DNA from: Protoeuglena noctilucae
Lineage: Eukaryota
Direction of reading: 5' to 3'
NCBI GenBank assembly: GCA_958009085.1
Contig: OY253669.1
Location: 1 to 64,000, forward strand
Length of the DNA stretch: 64,000 nt
Positions 431 to 9,685 of this stretch are shown piece by piece; position 1 is the first letter of the stretch; each line of letters starts with the position of its first letter. The position numbers were made by a program, and so were the translations under genes. The notes beneath the pieces were generated by a model. That model was not told the DNA's origin, searched no databases, and saw only the letters and a list, made by a program, of their open reading frames with translations.

Positions 431-433
431 GGC

Positions 434-504
434 TGCAGAAGCCGGGAATCGAACCCGGGTCGACACGGCCACAACGTGACGTTCTACCCCTGAACTACTT
501 CTGC
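434..504 (-). tRNA. tRNA-His (GTG)
   Basis: Cloverleaf: acceptor GCAGAAG/CTTCTGC, D-arm GTTC/GAAC, anticodon arm TCACG-TT GTG GC-CGTGT (one T:T mismatch), T-arm CCGGG-TTCGATT-CCCGG, discriminator A. A TATA-like TATATA lies ~25-30 nt upstream. Confidence 0.92.
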
Positions 505-1543
505 ACTGCGATTTTTAGGTAGCAAAGGTATATACATACCGCAAACAGCACAAAAATTCTGAACAAAAAATTTAAGGACTTAGCCATTAAGTACTTCATA
601 ATTCGTCTTCATCTCCCAAGAAATGATCGGCAACGTTCCGGTGCAGCAGGTGAGGGCTCGCCAGTGTATCCCATGGCGCCCTCTGCATGCATCGCTCTGT
701 CATGGCGCAGCTGTGCTGCTTCTGCTGGCGGGGGGCGTAGTAGGCTGCCATGGCAAGGTGCGCCCCACCGGGTCTGCTAGATGGCACTCCTGTGATGGTG
801 TGGGTAGCCTGCCCGCGCATGCGCGGGACGTGGTGAGTACTTCACATTGCGGTATCGCCTGGACGTGCAGGACTTCAAGGTCGCCGGCCCTCCAGGGTTC
901 TAAAGCCCGGGTTCGGCCCCGCGGGACAGCCGGCTGCCCGTCGGCGCTCGTCTCGGGGTGCCCGCAAGGAAACCTCGGGCGGGCGCCGGCGGGCGGGGGC
1001 CTTGCAGAGTCGGGGGCGGTGGCCAAGGGTTTCACGTCATGTTCGGAGTGTTGGTACGGCTTTGGCGCCCCCTTGTGGGACAGAGCGGGGGACCCAGGTC
1101 CCCGAGATCCGGTCCCCCCAGTCCCTTAGGGTTGCCGCTGCCTTCACCGCACGCGTTCAGGTGGCCTAACGACGCTCCCTCCCCCGGGACGCTCTGCAAA
1201 GCCCCCACTCACTCTGGGAGTGTGGTTCCCAAGGGGCCAGTGGGGGGGTTCGCCCCACTGTGCCCGGCGCTCTTGGCTGGTTATGATGACCCCGAAGCCG
1301 TGCTCAGTGTTCACGAAGGGTGTGCGCACCCTCGTGCCGCGGTTGACCCACGCTCTGACCCTGCCGGTGTCAGATGTGTTCGGGCTGAACCATTACGCCT
1401 CGAGTCTTTGGGGGGGCAGCCGAAATTTTTTATGGTGCAGCCACATGTGGTGTGGCACCACATGATCTTCGCCCCAGCTCCCTCCCGAGCCCCCGAGGCC
1501 CGACCCCAGCCCGCGCTCCAGCGTTCACAACAATATCCGAGCC

Positions 1544-1816
1544 TCCCACACGCAGCCTGGCTCCCCTGGCTCCCGCAGCTGATCCCTGCCGGGGGCCCAA
1601 ACGCCCGCCCAGCCACCGACAGCCGCCCCACGCTCAGGTTTGCCTGCACCACCGAGTCACCCACGTTTGTCCGGCTCCGCAGCACTGACCCACCGCCCAC
1701 CCGTCCCACACGCAGCCTGGCTCCCCTGGCTCCCGCAGCTGATCCCTGCCGGGGGCCCAAACGCCCGCCCAGCCACCGACAGCCGCCCCGCGCTCGGCTT
1801 TGCCTGCACCACCGAG
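1544..1816. repeat. Subtelomeric direct repeat, 2 x 113 bp at 160 bp spacing
   Basis: 1544-1656 and 1704-1816 differ at 3 positions. Confidence 0.95.
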
Positions 1817-1876
1817 GCAGCCGTGTCCATTTTCATCTGGCTCTGCCACGTGCTTATGGCATTATATCCAATGGCA

Positions 1877-4818
1877 TTATACCCTCGCCAAAAGGGATCC
1901 CTTGATGTCTGGCCCCTCCATCGCATCTCTCGCCCTCTTCCTTGCCGCCCTCGCTGCCTCCTCCTCCGCCACGTCCGCCCCCTCTTCCTCCTCCTGCGCC
2001 CTCTCCTGGGCGGCCCCGTCTTGGTCGCTGTCGACCCCGTCATGCCCATCGTCCGTGTAGCCCTTGTTGAGCAAGGCCTTGATGGATCCGAGGAGCTGTA
2101 CCATGGAAGACATGCTGCGGCCGACAAACAGGCCCTCGCTCTCGTAAAGTTTCTGCATCGCAGGAACACACAGAGGCATTGGGCCGGGGTGCTGGGGTTG
2201 CAAAGCACGAGGACGCCCCATTGCCGTCGACAGCGTCAGCTCTTACCAACACGTCCCTCGGGAACACGGTGCTGAGCGGGAATCGCAGAACGGTGTCGAC
2301 GGCTGCGTCCCTCTCGGCATCCGAGAAAGGCGCATTGCGGGAAGGAGAGTGAAAGCGCTTGTGAGCCAACACACGCATCTGCGCGAAGGCCGCCCACTGC
2401 GCCACGGGGCGTGTCTGGACATCCGGGTCCGAGTCGCACTTGCTCTGCGAAGTGCGCAAGGGACACCGGCCGTAGGCGTCGGGCAGTCTGCTTGGCAGCA
2501 GCCATCTCCGCATGCAAGAACGGCTCTCGCCTTCACAATCTCCCAGAACTTGTCGCCCAAGGGCGGAACACCGTCCTCCTTGATCGACGCGAACGATGCG
2601 TTGAGCTCGGGGCCGTACTTGACGTCGGCGATGATCTGCTCCGCTTTGCTCTCCTCCTTGACGGACACCTCCGGGAGCTCGTGCCTCCTCGCGGCGTCCA
2701 GGAAGCGCTTATCCTTGAGGCGGGCCTTTGCGGCTGCGTAGCTTACGCCGCTACCGTCCTTGCCGAAGAGCGACATCCCCAGGTCCGTGCCCTGCGCGCC
2801 GTGTATGGCGTGCGGGGATTTGCATTACGTGATGCAAACTTTCGAGGGACGCGGACATCAGGAAATAAGATACTACATGGAGATGACCACAGAAAATGCT
2901 GCTTCTCACCATCATGTCACCGAAGGTGATGGCGTGTTTGTTCTGGCTGTCGGAAGGCAGCGCCTTCCTGTACCCGGCCGCCTGCTGCAGGAGAATGAGC
3001 TGCTCGTGGCGGGTCATCCAGTCGCCGGACGCAATGTTCATCTCGGCCTCCCAGTTCCCGCCTGCAAAGTGACATGAAGTGGCACCAGGTGGCTCGCGTG
3101 CTGTCCACTCTCTGGCGCGCGAACGAGGCGCGATTATCTAGCGAGAGCTTGCAACTTACGTCCAGTATACGTGTGCTTCCTCCAGCTCGTTGTTGCCAGG
3201 TTGAGGTCATGCGCTCTTTTGTGCTCGCAGCACATGAGCTTGCCGCCCCGGACCACCCAGGAGGTGCGTAACCCCAACAGGACGCGGTCGCAGTCGGGGT
3301 GCTCGCAGTCAATGACCCTTGCAGGCGGGAAGGCGAGCTCCACGCCGGGCTGGAATCCCGTCATCTCCCGCAGCCACCGCACGCTCTCCATGTCCTCCCG
3401 GGCGAGAAGCGCCTGCGATCCATCAACGCCAGCTATATGATGAGGTTGAGAAGGCAATGTCACATCACCTCCGCATGCTGGTGCCTAGCATATGTTGCTG
3501 CGGACTCGCATCAAATTGCCGCGACGCTTGCATGGGATGCTGAAACAGCGAGCGTGCCTCCACACCGCTGGGTCGCCACGTACCTGGACGACCTCAGTCC
3601 TCCTCTGCGACTGCCGGTCCTTGGCCACGTACTTGTCGCCGAAGATCAAGCTCATGACTTCCCTCGTCGCCGACGCGCCGGACGCCCACGCCAATTCAAG
3701 CACCTGTCTGGCGCTGAAGCTCTCCATGGCTGTCTCGATCTCCGACGCGGCGTCGATGATGATGTCCGTGACGAAGAGGCCGCCCTGAATAAGGGGAGAC
3801 GGGGGCCAGGGAAGGTCGATGAGCGTGCGCAGCAGCCCCTTACTATCGTTGCCTACGGAGCCCACCATGGCATCCCGGTGCGTCTCACCCTCTTTCTCGG
3901 CACGATGTAGTACTCGGAGCGCCCGCCGACGGGCATGTAGGAACGCAGGTCGACGTCGACCATGGAGGGGACGTTCATGATGCAGTGTACGACTTGTTCC
4001 GTCGCGAAGGAGTGGACGCGGTCGTTCCAAGACCCTCTATGAAAGGAAAGGAATGTCAAGCTATGGCAGGCATCGACATGCAGCGGTCCAAATTGCCGAG
4101 AGAACCGCATCTTGGCAGCGCCGCCCCGAACGGTCGCATGCGTCAGCACGGACGCAGGGCGGTGGCGCAGCGCCGCGCGATGGCATCTAACAATGGCTTG
4201 CTCAGTCTCTGCGCCACTCACGCGAGCTCCAATTTCGGGATTGGCTCCCACGGGAAATCCTGCCCCTCCAGCCGCTGCGCCAAGTGCTCGCCGTATGCCG
4301 CGTCGCCGATCACCGCCCCGCCCTCGACGTCAAAGAGCTTGGCGAACGGCATCATCCTCTGGTGGATGCCCGGCAACGTCCGCGACCCCGGCACCACCTG
4401 CCCCTCTCCAACCCCAACCTTCACCACCAGCTGCTCGCCCAGCCGAAAGTTGGGCATCGCAATGCCCTGCGACCCCCTCTGCAGGTCGTCGGGCGAGCCC
4501 CAGACGACATAGATCGAGCTGGGGAGCAATGCTTTGTCGCTAAATGACACGTCCTCGAAGGTGCCTCCGAAAAAATTGTGCAAACTGTAGGTCCACGTGG
4601 ACCGGTTGACTCCGCCACCACCGGCGTGGAGGGGGTGCAGGTGCGCAGCGGCAGTCGCCTGGCTGCCCGTAAGGCCGCACGAGTCGGCGTGGGGCTCCCA
4701 CCAGGGGACGATACCGACAGGGTGTGTCACCATGATTGCCACATGGGCGCATGGAAGCACGCTGACCACCTGTGGGGCCAGAGAAATGCTCAGGCTCCGC
4801 CGCCGGCGAGTCAGACAT
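1877..4818 (-). CDS. Subtelomeric multi-exon protein, copy B: T5orf172/GIY-YIG-like domain + CxHxxC..CCxHK zinc finger + helical/acidic C-terminus
   Basis: Exons splice in frame: SIYVVWG..VVKVGVG; ATEQVVH..GGRSEYYIV; CEHPDC..WVVRGG..CCEHK; acidic tail ending at the stop at 1877. Exon-by-exon homologous to copy A. The start codon is uncertain. Confidence 0.65.
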
Positions 4819-4824
4819 CTGACG

Positions 4825-7317
4825 TCAGGCCCTGACGCCAGGAGAGTTGGTTATTCCCTTCTGTATTAATCGCGGTAACATGAGCTCGTTAATCGCGTGT
4901 TGCTGCAGCCTACATGTGGCGTCGCGCGCCTGGCTCTGCGAGCCACGCCCCGCTGCCACATGATGGTAGCCCTCAGCGCGGCTGGCAGCGCGGGCAGCCC
5001 AGTCGCCGCAGTCCATCGGCATCGGTGGCATCGGTCGCCGCAGTCCATCCCTCCCCGATGCTCACCTTGATCACCCGGGGTTGGCACTGGCAGCCGGGCT
5101 TGCTGACGAGGTAGAAGAGAAGCCAGTCTGTCTCCAGAGAACTGTAGAATCTGCAGGGTGCGGGCTGGAGACGCTCTTGCACGTTCTTCTCCACCTCGAC
5201 GCACGCGAGCACTTGGCCGGGCGTCCTCTCCAGCAGCACTCCCCGTTCCCTCATGGCCGCCTGCACAGGTACAAGGGTCGCACAATTGCTGGCAGTCGGA
5301 TGCCGAGGGAAGCTACGCTCTGGTTTGGTTGCTGCATGGCGAGGCAGAAGCTCACCTTGACCAGCGGCACGAGCCTCTCGTCCCCGAGCACGACATCATG
5401 GGCCCTGAGCACGTCCCCGACCAGCACCCGGGCCAACTTGACCTCCTTGCGCGTGAATGGGTTGCCGAACTCCTCATAGAACTCGTGGAAGGCCGGGAGG
5501 GAGAGCTGAGACAGAGCTGCACCCATAGTCACGTCCTCCGCCCCCCAGGATGCGGTCTCCCAACGTCGTTTCCTGAGAGAACAGCGGCGATATGGCAGAT
5601 TCTCGCCGCTCACACCACGGGTGAATTCGCGTGCTGCCCCGGAAGCACCGCGCGCACGCGTTGCGCAACGCACCAGCTGGTCGACGCGCGTCACGTCGGG
5701 GATGTGCGCCGTCGCCTCCTTGATCTCCACGAGGGTGGGCCACTCGCGCTCCCTCCAAAAGCGGGCTGCAGGCGCACCGTGGCGGGACTCAGCTGCTGTC
5801 GCTGCCAGGAGCGCTGTCGAATCTGCGCCGCAGCCATGACTAAACATGCGCAACTCACGTGAAACGGGGGTCCTCCGCGTCCTGGCGCAGGCGGCGACCT
5901 TGAGCTCCTCGGCCGACTTGTGGTCGCAGCACTCGAGCCTGGTGACGACCTCACCGTCCTCGTCCACTCCCCCCTCCACAACCACCCATTCCACCTTGCT
6001 GCCCAACACCTGCTGCGCACACCCAGAGTGGCTGCACTTGTAGACGATGCGCTTGGCCACGAACCGTTTCTCGAGCTCAGCGACGTGGATGAGACACAGG
6101 AAGGCCTCCACCTCGGGCACTGCCCTGACGTGACCCTGCAACGGGTTGAGGACGATGGCGGTGGTCCCTGGAACCCAAGGTCAGCGCGCGAGAGCGGCTG
6201 GAGCGGAGCGGTGCTGCGCTGCCTGTCGCGGTCTCACCATCAGGAACGCCTCCGAATCCCGATGGACGAAGGGCTCGAACGTGTCGAACTTGCGGGGCAC
6301 CCCGGCGGCGATCGCCACCTCCACCCGCATGCTCACGTTCTTGGCGTTAAGGTACGTCAGGAAGGCTTCCATGGCGCGGACGAGGGCCCGGAACTGCAGG
6401 TAGACAGGCGGGGCGGTCGCGGTGGGAAGCGCACCCCGCCAGGCCATTGGGCGGCGCACAGCGCTACAGGAGCCCACCTGCTCTGGCGTCAGGATCCGGA
6501 ACTCGGTCCGGCCGTTGAACGGCAGGTACTGCTCGAGCTCGGGCCACCGGAATTGCGCCGCGTCCAGGAGCCGGTGGAATACCGCCTCCACCACCCACAC
6601 GAGGGCACGAGGGCGGTGGATCCTGCGACAGGTGTGGGGTCAGCACGCTCAGGACTGCATGGCCAGGCGGCAGGAGCGCAGCGAGAGCGCAGGGAGCCCA
6701 GGGAGCGGCAAGCGCAGCAGCTAGGGGTTGCTGGTCACGTCGCGAGCGCCGAAGGGACGAAAAGCGCTGAGATTGGCCGTGTTGCCTAGCTGATGATGAG
6801 AACAACGAGCAGGAGTGACTCACATCTTCGCATCGATGCCCGCCTGGATGGGGCCGAGGCCACCAGTGCTGAGGCTGGCGACGAACTCGGCCCGGTAGCC
6901 GGGAAGGTCGACCACCGCCATGTCGTGGATAGAGAACCACAAACCACACTGATAGCACCGGGTGGACCATCCGCGGTATCGTGACGAGACGTAGGGGACG
7001 AAGGAGGAGCCGATGCCGATCTTTGCGACGCGCAGCGACCCGTCCTCGTGACCATCGGGGAGTTTAATCCCCGTGGCGAAGTCCGGCGCGCATAGCACGC
7101 AATAGACGAAGGCGCTGGTGTCCCCCCAGTCCGAGAGGAAGACCTCGCGGCCCTCCGGGCAGAAGAGGTTCAGCAGGCTGTCCCTGAAGAAGTAGGACTT
7201 GATTTCCCCGCGCCCCAGATGGTTAGCCTGCCGCGTCCAATGCCACGAAGTGCGAGAGGCGAAGGACACAGGCGTGGACTGGATCTCAGGCAGCCAATGG
7301 CTGTTTACGGTCGGCAT
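4825..7317 (-). CDS. Subtelomeric multi-exon protein, copy A: T5orf172/GIY-YIG-like domain + zinc finger (apparent 1-nt frameshift at 5541-5546)
   Basis: AFVYCVL..VAKIGIG; VVEAVFHRLL..NGRTEFRIL; CSHSGC..WVVVEGG..CCDHK. GT-AG introns. First and last exons are uncertain, and A could be fused with copy B. Confidence 0.62.
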
Positions 7318-7881
7318 GGTGCCGTGCTTCGCGCCCGTGGATGGTAGTCCCGCTGCCGTGGCCGCAGTGTTGGACTACTTCGGCGCGAGACACCGGAACC
7401 ATGACTCAGCAGCGCCCCACCGGGCGTAGGGCAGGATTTGGCGTTCCGAGCCCGGTGCGCAAGTTCACCGGGTGAGAAGACTGTAGCGGACACGGTGGAA
7501 CGGTCGAAGGATGACTCTAGCGACGGCGACGTGTGCACATGTCGCTGCATTCGTGTGCGCGCCCAACCGCGACGCGCTGATCAAGTTGGGACAGCTCGGG
7601 GTTATCTTAACAGTTTGAGTGTCTTAAAAGCAGTCCCCGCGTTCATTGTGAACTAGTTCCAGGTCGGTGCCGCCTTCTTCCATCGCTCGCGGCTGCGGTG
7701 CTACGCTGCGGGGCGCGCAGGGACCACTTAGGTCGGCCTATGACCGCGATGGTAGTTTAAAAAACGTTTAAATGTTGCTACCCACCAACGACTTGGAAAG
7801 GATTGGCCGAGTGGCGCCATCTGACGTGAGTGGCTGCTGCGACGTCTACCGCGTGTGTGAGATACACACGCATCCATATAA

Positions 7882-9685
7882 CTAGATGTCCTTGCATCGG
7901 AACCGCGGCCTGTCGCACCCCCCTCCCCCCTCCTCCCTGGCCTTGAACACCCACGCGTGGATGGCGTCCACCGTCATGTGCGCCGCGCGCATGGCGCGGG
8001 CGTGGGCCTCGCACGCCGGGCCGTCGAAGGGCCGGGCCTTCTGCATCGTGACCAGTCGCCGGTTGTACCGCGCCTGCAGCACCTGCTCCGACACGGCGCG
8101 CAGGGCCAGGCACGGGTGGCGGGCCAGCAGCGCCAGCTCCTCCCCCTCGCCCTGCTCGAACCACGGCATGAAGAAGACCAGGCGGCCGCCCACGCGCAGG
8201 AGCGCCGACGCCTTCAGCAGCAGGTCCGCCAGGCACTCGCTCAGGCGGTAGCGGGCGGTGCTGGGGATGTGCGCGCCCCTCCGCTCGTCGGGGATCACGA
8301 CGGCCTTGGCGTGGCTCTTGCGGCCGCCCTCGCGCACTCCGTAGGGGGGGTCGCACACCACGGCGTCCAGCAACTCGACCGCGTCCCCGCGCAGGCTCCA
8401 CCTGCTGAAGTCGTCTGCGGGGGGTGGGCGGTCGGGGCCGTCAGCGGCTGTCTGGGCCCCCCCAGCGCGCTGGTTGACCCCCCCTTCTCACCGCAGAAGA
8501 GTCCCACGGGCGCAGCGAGGCCGTACTGCTGGAAGTTGGACCAGATGTCCCGGTGCTGCCCACCCCGATCGGCGCCGTCGCGTATGACGCGCACGTCCAT
8601 GTCCATGCCGATCACGTGGGCGCCAAAGTACACCAGGGACACGAGGATGCTGCCCGTGCCGGCGAAGGGGTCCATCACCAGCTGCGACGCCCGCACCTGG
8701 CCCATGTTGGCCATCACGAACGCCATCTGCGGGAGCCACCAGGCAAGCGGCCGTCGCGGTGTGGGCCCCATCGCTGAGCCCTCCACGCCGCGCTGTGTCC
8801 CGCTCGCCGCACCTCGGGGTCCATGGACGTGGTGCCGATGTAGCCGCGCTGGGGCAGCGCGAAGCCCTGCCAGAAGCACTTGTCGGCGATGGCGACCTGC
8901 CGGCCGAAGAACCACCGCGTGGGGATGGTCTCCGGGAGGCCCATGTTGTCCCCCCGCTCGCACTTGGTGATCCACATGACGTGCTGGGCGTCCCGCAGGT
9001 CCACGCGCCCCCGCCACTGCTCCCCCAGCCACCGCAGCGACAACATGAGCGGCGGGTGCTCGGTCGCGGGAAGGGGCGCCCCGAAGTGCTCCACGCGGAA
9101 CTGCAACGGGCGGGGGTAGGTTATGGCACCAGTCGACACATGCGTGGTACTCACTGCCCCGTGCACTCCCCCCCTACGCCCACTCCCCTCGCCTTGAATG
9201 TCTCGTCTTTGCCCATCAGCCCCGTCGTCCACGCCGGTCCCGCGTCCCTCCGCAGCGACTCCACGACGTCCTCCCACGTCGGCCCTTCCGCCCACAGCTC
9301 CAGCACGGCGCGCACCAGCACCGACCGCGCGCACACGCCCCGCATCACCGCCTCGTCTGGGGAGTGCAGCAGCCAGAATGGAGAGAAGGGCTCACCCCCC
9401 GCGGGGCCCTCCAGGATTACCACCCGGGAAGGGTCAGCCCCGTCGGGCACCTCCCGCAGCACGTCCACCTCCGGCACTGCCCTGGGGAAAGCACGATGCG
9501 GGAAGGGCGACGTCGGCGGAGGCGCGGCGAGGCGACCGCTGCGTGGGGCACCCGGGCGCGGCCACTCACCGCACGTCCACCCCCGAGGGGCGCACGAAGG
9601 TGTACCCCTGCATCTCCACCAGGGCCTGCAGCTCCGCCACGCGGAACTCCACCATGCGGTAGCGGAAGACCACGAGGCACCGCAT
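7882..9685 (-). CDS. TRM11: tRNA (guanine(10)-N2)-methyltransferase
   Basis: Motifs YIGTTSMDPE, MAFVMANMGQV..LVMDPFAGTGSIL, NFQQYGL, DAVVCDPPYGVREG; multi-exon. Confidence 0.93.

Follow-up and report, generated by a model that had tools for sequence, protein, structure and literature searches.

In a GC-rich marine eukaryote, the first protein-coding locus inward from one telomere consists of two paralogous genes in tandem, u1 (7317-4825) and u2 (4733-1877), both on the minus strand and together spanning positions 1877-7317 of the window, i.e., of the whole 64 kb stretch of DNA analyzed. The two genes have the same intron structure, u2 is spliced in RNA, their distribution is narrow, and neither has a significant match to any described family. 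The best explanation, to which we give a probability of roughly 50%, is that they belong to a lineage-restricted Cys/His zinc-finger family and are ancient nuclear tandem duplicates rather than recent viral or mobile DNA. The gene family would then be a nuclear one confined to this lineage, and its proteins would bind nucleic acid or chromatin in the nucleus: we consider nucleic acid binding probable, and infer the nuclear location.

The telomeric repeat (CCCTAA)n was read directly at positions 1-230 of the plus strand, where the inner end of the array is degenerating and its inward limit is approximate. A gene for tRNA-His (431-505) is the only one between the telomere and u1/u2, which makes the pair the first protein-coding locus. 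The earlier note had made this claim, and had described a tandem pair of intron-containing genes adjoining the telomere; both statements are confirmed, the second with the splicing of u2 seen in RNA. The window covers one chromosome end, and no further copies of u1 or u2 were found within its 64 kb.

The structure of u2 is known from RNA. All seven introns separating its eight exons are matched by metatranscriptome contigs at 100% identity, in four of four RNA runs that come from at most two samples of one study, and the spliced contigs, 2056 and 2084 bases long, contain no mismatches. Spliced transcripts of u2 are thus present in natural marine communities. The transcribed span is 1819-4766 (minus strand), given as the ends of RNA contigs and not as mapped transcript ends, with a 3′ UTR that runs to about 1819-1827 in the contigs. 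Exon 1 (4222-4733, start codon 4733-4731) carries the motifs IYVVW (about 4497-4520) and KVGVG (4407-4427), while exon 2 (3889-4036), delimited by the joints 4036/4222 and 3783/3888 and by the reading frame, carries TEQVVH (about 3985-4005) and GRSEYY (about 3898-3921). The contigs further define exon 3 (3584-3784), exon 4 with the Cys/His module (3160-3412), exon 5 (2910-3061), exon 6 (2531-2791), exon 7 (2247-2444) and the coding part of exon 8 (1877-2152, stop 1877-1879), all on the minus strand. The intron after exon 6 (2445-2530, joint 2444/2531) is of the GC-AG type, reading CT..GC at its ends on the plus strand. The protein has 666 residues and, beyond the parts shared with u1, contains a helical region plus, encoded by exon 8, an acidic tail with a basic RKRAR patch. 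Just beyond the stop codon lies a 119-base unit in two direct copies (1544-1822, plus strand; 160 bases apart and 96% alike), and the end of the second copy coincides with the end of the long RNA contigs.

For u1 the gene structure is a prediction: it can be read as an intact eight-exon gene with consensus splice sites and intron phases 2,0,0,1,0,0,0, identical to those of u2 at all seven positions. Four of the seven introns are unchanged from a composition-based model, while the 84-base in-frame intron 2, the donor of intron 6 and the last exon were set from consensus sites with u2 as a guide. Predicted exon 1 (6824-7317, start codon 7317-7315) carries FVYCV (about 7090-7113) and KIGIG (7009-7029), and predicted exon 2 (6478-6622) carries VEAVFH (about 6574-6591) and GRTEF (about 6487-6510). 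The remaining predicted exons, likewise on the minus strand, are exon 3 (6238-6393), exon 4 with the Cys/His module (5859-6135), exon 5 (5674-5765), exon 6 (5356-5505, with a GTGAGC donor picked by consensus), exon 7 (5066-5260) and exon 8 (4825-4935, stop 4825-4827). An alternative acceptor for exon 8 lies at 4902, the frame is kept with either, and the predicted protein has 528-539 residues. Because intron 2 is in frame without a stop codon, it may be retained.

The spliced proteins align with 23% identity over 359 residues (E 1e-10; u2 36-375 against u1 33-361), an identity low enough to make the duplication ancient. With blastp on the open reading frame pieces, the zinc-finger exon reaches E 6e-9, compared with 3e-4 and 2e-3 for exons 1 and 2, respectively. 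In exon-wise Smith-Waterman alignments with 30 shuffles per exon, exons 2 and 4 are clearly above the null (54 vs. 32±3 and 97 vs. 40±4.5 shuffled); the excess is weaker for exon 1 (71 vs. 46±8), since one shuffle scored 77, and exons 3, 5, 6, 7 and 8 do not rise above the null in the same test. The observation made in the earlier note is confirmed, with exons 1, 2 and 4 the only ones more alike than shuffled controls. The paired 'helical' segments LGDERLVPLVK/LGDKFWEIVK and YSSLETD/FSDAERD do lie in equivalent exons, but their resemblance alone is not significant. All motifs that had been quoted are present on the minus strand of both units: FVYCV..KIGIG in u1 corresponds to IYVVW..KVGVG in u2, VEAVFH..GRTEF to TEQVVH..GRSEY, and CSHSGC..WVVVEGG..CCDHK to CEHPDC..WVVRGG..CCEHK. 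TTLGDRILG (about 5547-5573), which had been taken as a matching u1 exon, instead lies within intron 5 of the intact model, in a frame that runs into a stop 28 codons further on. What u1 and u2 have in common is only the N-terminal ~220 residues, of no recognizable family, and one Cys/His module.

This module, C-x-H-x2-C-x19/29-C-C-x-H-K, occurs once per protein. In u2 (3218-3307, minus strand) it consists of C-E-H-P-D-C, 19 residues and C-C-E-H-K, and in u1 (5917-6036, minus strand) of C-S-H-S-G-C, 29 residues and C-C-D-H-K. Residues C36, H38, C41, C61, C62, H64 and K65 of alignment A1 are the same in u1 and u2, whose identity is otherwise 23-33%, and judging from these residues the module would bind zinc. 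It was previously likened to EsV-1-7 fingers, with which it shares the ligand order C-x4-C ... C-x2-H, a spacing usual for the EsV-1-7 motif, which occurs in brown algae and in giant viruses that infect them. However, EsV-1-7 members carry tandem repeats, whereas u1 and u2 have one module each, with a spacer of 19 or 29 residues. THAP and SWIM proteins, which bind DNA, have single zinc fingers of the C2CH or CxH type, and u1 and u2 resemble them in having a lone Cys/His module within a larger protein, with ligands readable as C-x4-C...C-x2-H or as CxH...CxH. No Pfam zinc-finger model matches the exons of u1 or u2. Specifically, PF19114, the EsV-1-7 accession according to an excerpt of one report (10.1101/2024.02.19.579948), has no match on either zinc-finger exon (E≤1; E≤10); with the module single and unrepeated, an EsV-1-7 finger finds no support. 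The EsV-1-7 genes of Ectocarpus have no other Pfam domain annotation in the excerpted part of another (10.64898/2026.04.27.720984).

Searches of Pfam, PHROGs, NCBIfam and PADLOC gave no significant or above-cut-off match (weak sub-threshold matches in the first two, none in the last two), and PDB sequences likewise gave none. A profile of exon 1 run against 1,835,955,588 representative proteins finds three related clusters, one being the open reading frame of the window itself, all unnamed; this supports the claim of an undescribed family and leaves two further 50%-identity clusters worldwide. Among these 1.84 billion proteins the profile found no T5orf172 protein, and neither this search nor that of IMG/VR described below gave a viral or bacterial relative. 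At E≤1e-3 there are five matches, the three family members and two repeat proteins that we judged spurious. P0002, a relative with 61% identity to exon 1 of u1, stops where that exon does, while for P0003 the identity is 48.5%, to exon 1 of u2; start and exon border are kept in both, and all four proteins begin with M-[PV]-T. The proposed viral origin finds no support here: none of the 93 and 39 pattern matches in IMG/VR was confirmed, the best PHROGs match (E 0.016) is not significant, and tblastn of phage genomes found no relatives, with one match at E 0.4. GC3 is 0.85 in both genes, host-like compared with 0.80-0.95 in eight neighboring host open reading frames.

The earlier note had also assigned the N-terminal region to the T5orf172 branch of the GIY-YIG nucleases. 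In Pfam, PF10544, PF13455 and all other GIY-YIG models matched 0 of 12 open reading frame pieces (E≤1) and 0 of 8 u2 exons (E≤10), in runs on single exons, where intron 1 would interrupt the putative domain. The same Pfam model readily detects true members, scoring 49 and 34 bits for those of phage T5 and matching in 33 of 301 bacterial genomes. On the spliced proteins, a narrow HMM of the T5 clade gives no match and hhalign against the narrow set a probability of 0.2%, while home-built T5orf172 profiles give p between 0.005 and 0.15, i.e., chance-level to marginal. A 42-sequence HMM scores u1 at 2.2 bits, a value reached by 12/500 shuffles, and u2 at −0.7 bits, reached by 74/500; for an HMM of the long subtype, shuffles score as high in 36/500 (u1) and 47/500 (u2). 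With a broad profile hhalign reaches a probability of 3.2% (P 0.014), a score matched by 1 of 200 column shuffles, with 17.2 for the reversed-sequence control against 19.75 observed. An AlphaFold2 model of exon 1 (five sequences) has a mean pLDDT of 31.4, too low for a fold search, and a second AlphaFold run, at 39, was likewise unusable. By the refuting condition set in the earlier note, the absence of a significant match in profile searches for a GIY-YIG fold weakens the assignment, which is not supported here.

It is nevertheless possible, though we hold it only tentatively, that a strongly diverged nuclease domain of the T5orf172/MUG113 type, interrupted by an intron and with long loop insertions, makes up the N-terminal region and is aimed at DNA by the Cys/His module; u1 and u2 would then cut DNA, e.g., in defense, repair or chromosome-end processes. 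Twenty-six true T5orf172 sequences have G, Y, K, G, R, E and E invariant, and the residues that correspond to them in u1 and u2 (a hydrophobic-Y-hydrophobic strand, K-[IV]-G, Arg, E-x3-H, and E-[FY] with aromatics) are all conserved and in the right order, with atypical spacings. Specifically, hhalign pairs E-x3-H...GRSEYY with the E-x2-H...EWF of T5orf172, and at a loose setting extends collinearly to IYVVW, KVGVG and R. A gap-free test of six ordered blocks scores 32.2 for u1 and 27.6 for u2, above all 12 control open reading frames from the window (6.6-21.5), with shuffles as high in 2/400 and 22/400; this makes a catalytic GIY-YIG-like domain possible. The strands lie 26-30 residues apart, compared with about 10-20 in the aligned references, but a bacterial subtype (sequences L041-L052) has similarly long spacings, and Cys/His motifs also occur in the second of the T5orf172 proteins that phage T5 encodes. 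The silent Pfam models, the narrow and broad HMM results and the reversed control all count against a nuclease, as does P0003, which lacks an Arg at the usual T5orf172 spacing. Moreover, the tests are not independent, because they reuse the motifs that prompted the idea, and the reference profiles cover one bacterial phylum and the T5 clade, without eukaryotic or giant-virus members. A fuller version, which seems doubtful to us, is that an extremely diverged T5orf172-type nuclease was acquired long ago, came to have introns and the codon bias of the host, and was joined to a single, novel Cys/His finger that binds DNA; at the chromosome end u2 would be retained as the expressed nuclease, with u1 next to it as its diverged partner or regulator, for antiviral defense or chromosome-end processing.

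Alternatively, u2 alone may be functional and u1 a silent or decaying copy, so that the pair is a leftover duplication rather than a working two-gene unit. TTLGDRILG, in a stretch homologous to the beginning of u2 exon 6, lies in the truncated frame described above, and u1 is intact only if another acceptor bypasses this stretch; u1 also lacks the acidic tail of u2, and its C-terminal exons do not exceed shuffles against u2. However, u1 retains an intact eight-exon reading with consensus splice sites, its GC3 is as coding-like as that of u2, and a u1-type exon 1 is open in six distinct natural variants of the 61%-identical relative; we consider decay unlikely. We find it highly improbable that u1 and u2 spread between chromosome ends, whether as a selfish subtelomeric element or as a driver/immunity pair: only the telomere-adjacent position and the tandem arrangement favor this, whereas the copies are about 23% identical and the duplication ancient, the window holds no other copy, the codon bias is host-like, and the only other relatives worldwide are the two further clusters. 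Terminal or inverted repeats were not found around the genes, the sole exception being the 119-base direct repeat, which is outside them.

Other eukaryotes also have lineage-specific subtelomeric gene families, which u1 and u2 resemble in being the first coding locus, fast-evolving, tandemly duplicated and taxonomically restricted. They differ in that there are only two very old copies, and there is no sign of copy exchange between chromosome ends in the single end seen. On present evidence, the pair is a well-supported case of a lineage-restricted, fast-evolving chromosome-end locus in an abundant marine eukaryote, with one member, u2, expressed in the sea, which is useful for annotation and unsurprising. 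The importance would be greater if the N-terminal region turned out to be a phage-type nuclease that has been domesticated: T5orf172 genes of the nucleus, with introns and a dedicated zinc finger, would then be candidates for an algal defense or a telomere-associated activity, and the RNA-confirmed u2 model provides an exact sequence for testing this.

The palindrome TGACGTCA (4820-4827, on either strand) overlaps the stop codon of u1, and the u2 RNA contigs have their 5′ ends ~40-55 bases downstream of it. The 64 kb contain three such sites compared with 0.76 expected, and at least three occur in 4 of 100 shuffles. The palindrome may be a promoter element of u2.

The first protein-coding locus inside the telomere is, as the earlier note had it, the minus-strand tandem pair u1 (7317–4825) and u2 (4733–1877, the telomere-proximal unit), and the kinship of these two diverged units is confirmed. 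Specifically, the spliced proteins align with 23% identity over 359 residues (E = 1e-10; 25.6% identity globally), and among open reading frame pieces the zinc-finger exons match at E = 6e-9, exons 1 at 3e-4 and exons 2 at 2e-3. No third copy was found in the 64 kb window. Telomeric repeats, (CCCTAA)n, open the window and run to about base 230; its G+C content is 60–73%, and it also holds ordinary eukaryotic genes (kelch, RCC1, ankyrin, DUF4457 and cyclic-nucleotide phosphodiesterase).

The initial models of both units came from a composition-based exon-chaining script. Four metatranscriptome runs, from at most two samples of one study, contain between about a quarter and a third of the words sampled from the stretch, and when their contigs were aligned to 1500–8000, spliced u2 contigs of 2056 and 2084 bases matched with zero mismatches and skipped exactly seven segments: 4037–4221, 3785–3888, 3413–3583, 3062–3159, 2792–2909, 2445–2530 and 2153–2246. 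Six of these minus-strand introns are GT-AG, and the one at 2445–2530 is GC-AG, its GC donor being confirmed by the RNA. The RNA-confirmed u2 gene has eight exons and a coding sequence of 2001 bases (666 codons plus stop), from which the composition-based model departed at a single donor, by 9 bases. Seven RNA junctions thus confirm u2 as an intron-containing gene, and u2 is expressed in the sea. Its contigs span 4766 to 1819; the longest has its 5′ end at 4766, while two others begin at 4730–4732. The longest contig includes two out-of-frame ATGs (4739–4749, minus strand), which precede the conserved u2 start by 6 and 14 bases. Shortly after the u2 stop, a 119-base unit is present in two direct copies (1544–1662 and 1704–1822, 160-base spacing, 96% identity), and the long u2 contigs stop at the border of that second copy (1819–1827); a separate RNA contig spans 1600–1789, and one contig goes back 59 at the repeat. 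The X10 contigs, whose loose ends fall at 1972, 3636, 3682 and 4324, look like unrelated partial matches and were set aside.

For u1 there is no RNA contig cover in the four runs aligned, which cannot be taken as silence, and its model therefore stays a prediction: an intact reading of eight exons with consensus splice sites, encoding 539 or 528 residues. The predicted exons, on the minus strand, are 7317–6824, 6622–6478, 6393–6238, 6135–5859, 5765–5674, 5505–5356, 5260–5066 and 4935 (or 4902)–4825. The predicted intron phases (2,0,0,1,0,0,0) are the same as in u2, a match that is only partly independent since intron 2, the intron-6 donor and the last exon were set with u2 as guide; four of the seven introns were taken unchanged from the de novo model. 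Predicted intron 2 (84 bases) is in frame and free of stops, and is possibly retained. Because introns and phases are conserved between copies only 23% identical, the duplication and the introns must be old. A reading of u1 and u2 as a single gene, spliced from a donor at 5065 to an acceptor near 4768, was rejected: u1 ends in an in-frame terminal exon with a stop of its own, and u2 opens with the M-[PV]-T common to all four family members. The palindrome TGACGTCA (4820–4827), which we take to be CRE-like, overlaps the predicted u1 stop codon and precedes the 5′ ends of the u2 contigs by about 40–55 bases; only about 60 bases separate the u1 stop from the start of the u2 contigs.

The two units had been described as aligning exon by exon, and this holds for part of their length. 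Measured against 30 shuffles for each exon, similarity is clearly above the null for exon 2 (54 vs 32 ± 3) and exon 4 (97 vs 40 ± 4.5) and weaker for exon 1 (71 vs 46 ± 8, one shuffle reaching 77). Exons 3, 5, 6, 7 and 8 do not exceed it, so the C-terminal 'helical' matches are not significant by themselves. Two of these matches fall at equivalent exon ends in u1 and u2; the u1 string TTLGDRILG belongs to a frame that stops 28 codons on, and in the intact model the string is part of intron 5.

Invariant between the paralogues (u2 exon numbering) are C36, H38, C41, C61, C62, H64 and K65, giving one C-x-H-x2-C-x19/29-C-C-x-H-K finger per protein, and this ligand pattern suggests that it binds zinc. 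A likeness to EsV-1-7 repeats could not be upheld, as exons and ORF pieces gave no Pfam EsV-1-7 match. EsV-1-7 proteins are described as a large family of a short, tandemly arrayed Cys-rich motif (10.1101/2024.02.19.579948), those of Ectocarpus carrying no other Pfam domain annotation (10.64898/2026.04.27.720984), whereas u1 and u2 have a single module each; we therefore do not file it under that name.

Whether the N-terminal region is a T5orf172-type GIY-YIG nuclease is harder to judge. Pfam searches of 12 ORF pieces (E ≤ 1) and the eight exact u2 exons (E ≤ 10) returned sub-threshold noise only, which for these single exons and pieces included no GIY-YIG, T5orf172, MUG113, EsV-1-7 or zinc-finger model. 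PF10544, PF13455, PF01541 and PF19114 were run on single exons only, a weak test of the nuclease idea because intron 1 splits the putative domain. As references we took two phage T5 T5orf172 genes (PF10544 at 49 and 34 bits), 27 T5-clade proteins and 31 bacterial domain segments from one phylum, a set with no eukaryotic or giant-virus members. In that phylum 33 of 301 genomes gave a PF10544 match; among the 36 matches listed 30 had loci, one with an internal stop was dropped and two more were added to make the 31 segments. Real members show the hallmark pattern given in the earlier note, and in them G, Y, K, G, R, E and E are invariant.

The T5-clade HMM did not match spliced u1 or u2 (hhalign probability 0.2%). 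A 42-sequence profile, made of the 31 segments and 11 of the 26 T5-clade rows, scored u1 at 2.2 bits and u2 at −0.7 bits, with residue shuffles as high in 12/500 and 74/500 cases; for an 11-sequence profile of the long-loop subtype these counts were 36/500 (u1) and 47/500 (u2). Aligned by hhalign to the 42 sequences, the family alignment scored 19.75 (P = 0.014, probability 3.2%), pairing TEQVVH...GRSEYY with E-x2-H...EWF and, at a loose setting, extending collinearly to IYVVW, KVGVG and an Arg; one of 200 column shuffles reached 19.75, but 17.23 was obtained with the alignment reversed. When six blocks were tested in order without regard to loop length, u1 scored 32.2 (2/400 shuffles) and u2 27.6 (22/400), against 6.6–21.5 for twelve other ORFs of the window. 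The resemblance is real for the motifs and their order but statistically marginal. AlphaFold2 models of exon 1 (five sequences, mean pLDDT 31.4) and of the zinc-finger exon (two sequences, 39.0) were too low in confidence for a fold comparison. In the phage T5 reference stretch (L003, 104312–107572), the second T5orf172 protein (ORF 1462–2295, minus strand) has repeated Cys/His motifs upstream of its nuclease domain, a case in which a phage protein combines a zinc module with a T5orf172 domain.

The proposal of an undescribed family has fared well. PHROGs gave nothing significant (best E 0.016), NCBIfam and PADLOC 0/11 each, PDB sequences no match (best E 0.26 and 1.3), and the best ESM Atlas scores (0.87 and 0.82) were below the useful range. 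An exon-1 HMMER profile of both units, run against 1,835,955,588 representatives, returned five proteins at E ≤ 1e-3, one of them the u2 ORF of the window itself. P0002 shares 61% identity with u1 exon 1, and P0003 shares 48.5% with u2 exon 1; P0004 (seven short repeated matches) and P0005 (a lectin-like repeat protein, four repeated matches) were judged repeat-driven and set aside. The family members all lack names, derive from environmental or run assemblies, and share the M-[PV]-T start and an end at the same exon border. Word-index searches with exon 1 of u1 and u2, which covered only the longer proteins, gave no match among 443 and 2157 candidates, a spliced full-length product is absent from the word-indexed protein collection, and JGI metagenome contigs gave 118 pattern matches with no confirmed relative. 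With so few relatives across searches, the family is tiny and lineage-restricted. In a partial library, literature on T5orf172, MUG113, GIY-YIG and subtelomeres showed nothing comparable to the locus; the GIY-YIG genes described there include mitochondrial ones or ones on unplaced contigs. A viral derivation, also proposed, finds no backing: PHROGs, IMG/VR and phage searches gave no viral relatives, GC3 is 0.85 in both units, like the 0.80–0.95 of neighbouring host genes, and the duplication and introns are old.

The observation stands, and its interpretation finds partial support. We consider it most likely, with a probability of about one half, that the pair represents a lineage-restricted family of nuclear zinc-finger proteins whose N-terminal domain is unclassified. 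That this domain has a T5orf172-like nuclease fold is possible though doubtful: motifs and motif order speak for it, but the statistics are marginal and are not independent of how the idea arose. It is unlikely that only u2 is functional, as the predicted reading of u1 is intact. Least probable is a selfish subtelomeric element: the place next to the telomere speaks for it, but there is only a single tandem pair in the window and codon usage is host-like.

Between the telomere and this first protein-coding gene, only about 200 bases inward of the repeats, lies a tRNA-His(GTG) gene (431–505, minus strand; ARAGORN, Rfam tRNA 65 bits). In some eukaryotes tRNA genes serve as chromatin barriers, and so its place there may be no accident. 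The next gene inward from the pair is an ORF at 7839–8487 (minus strand, GC3 0.95) with no Pfam match at E ≤ 1e-3; it contains a DPPYG motif, typical of some methyltransferases, and is overlain by an RNA contig from 7839 onward.
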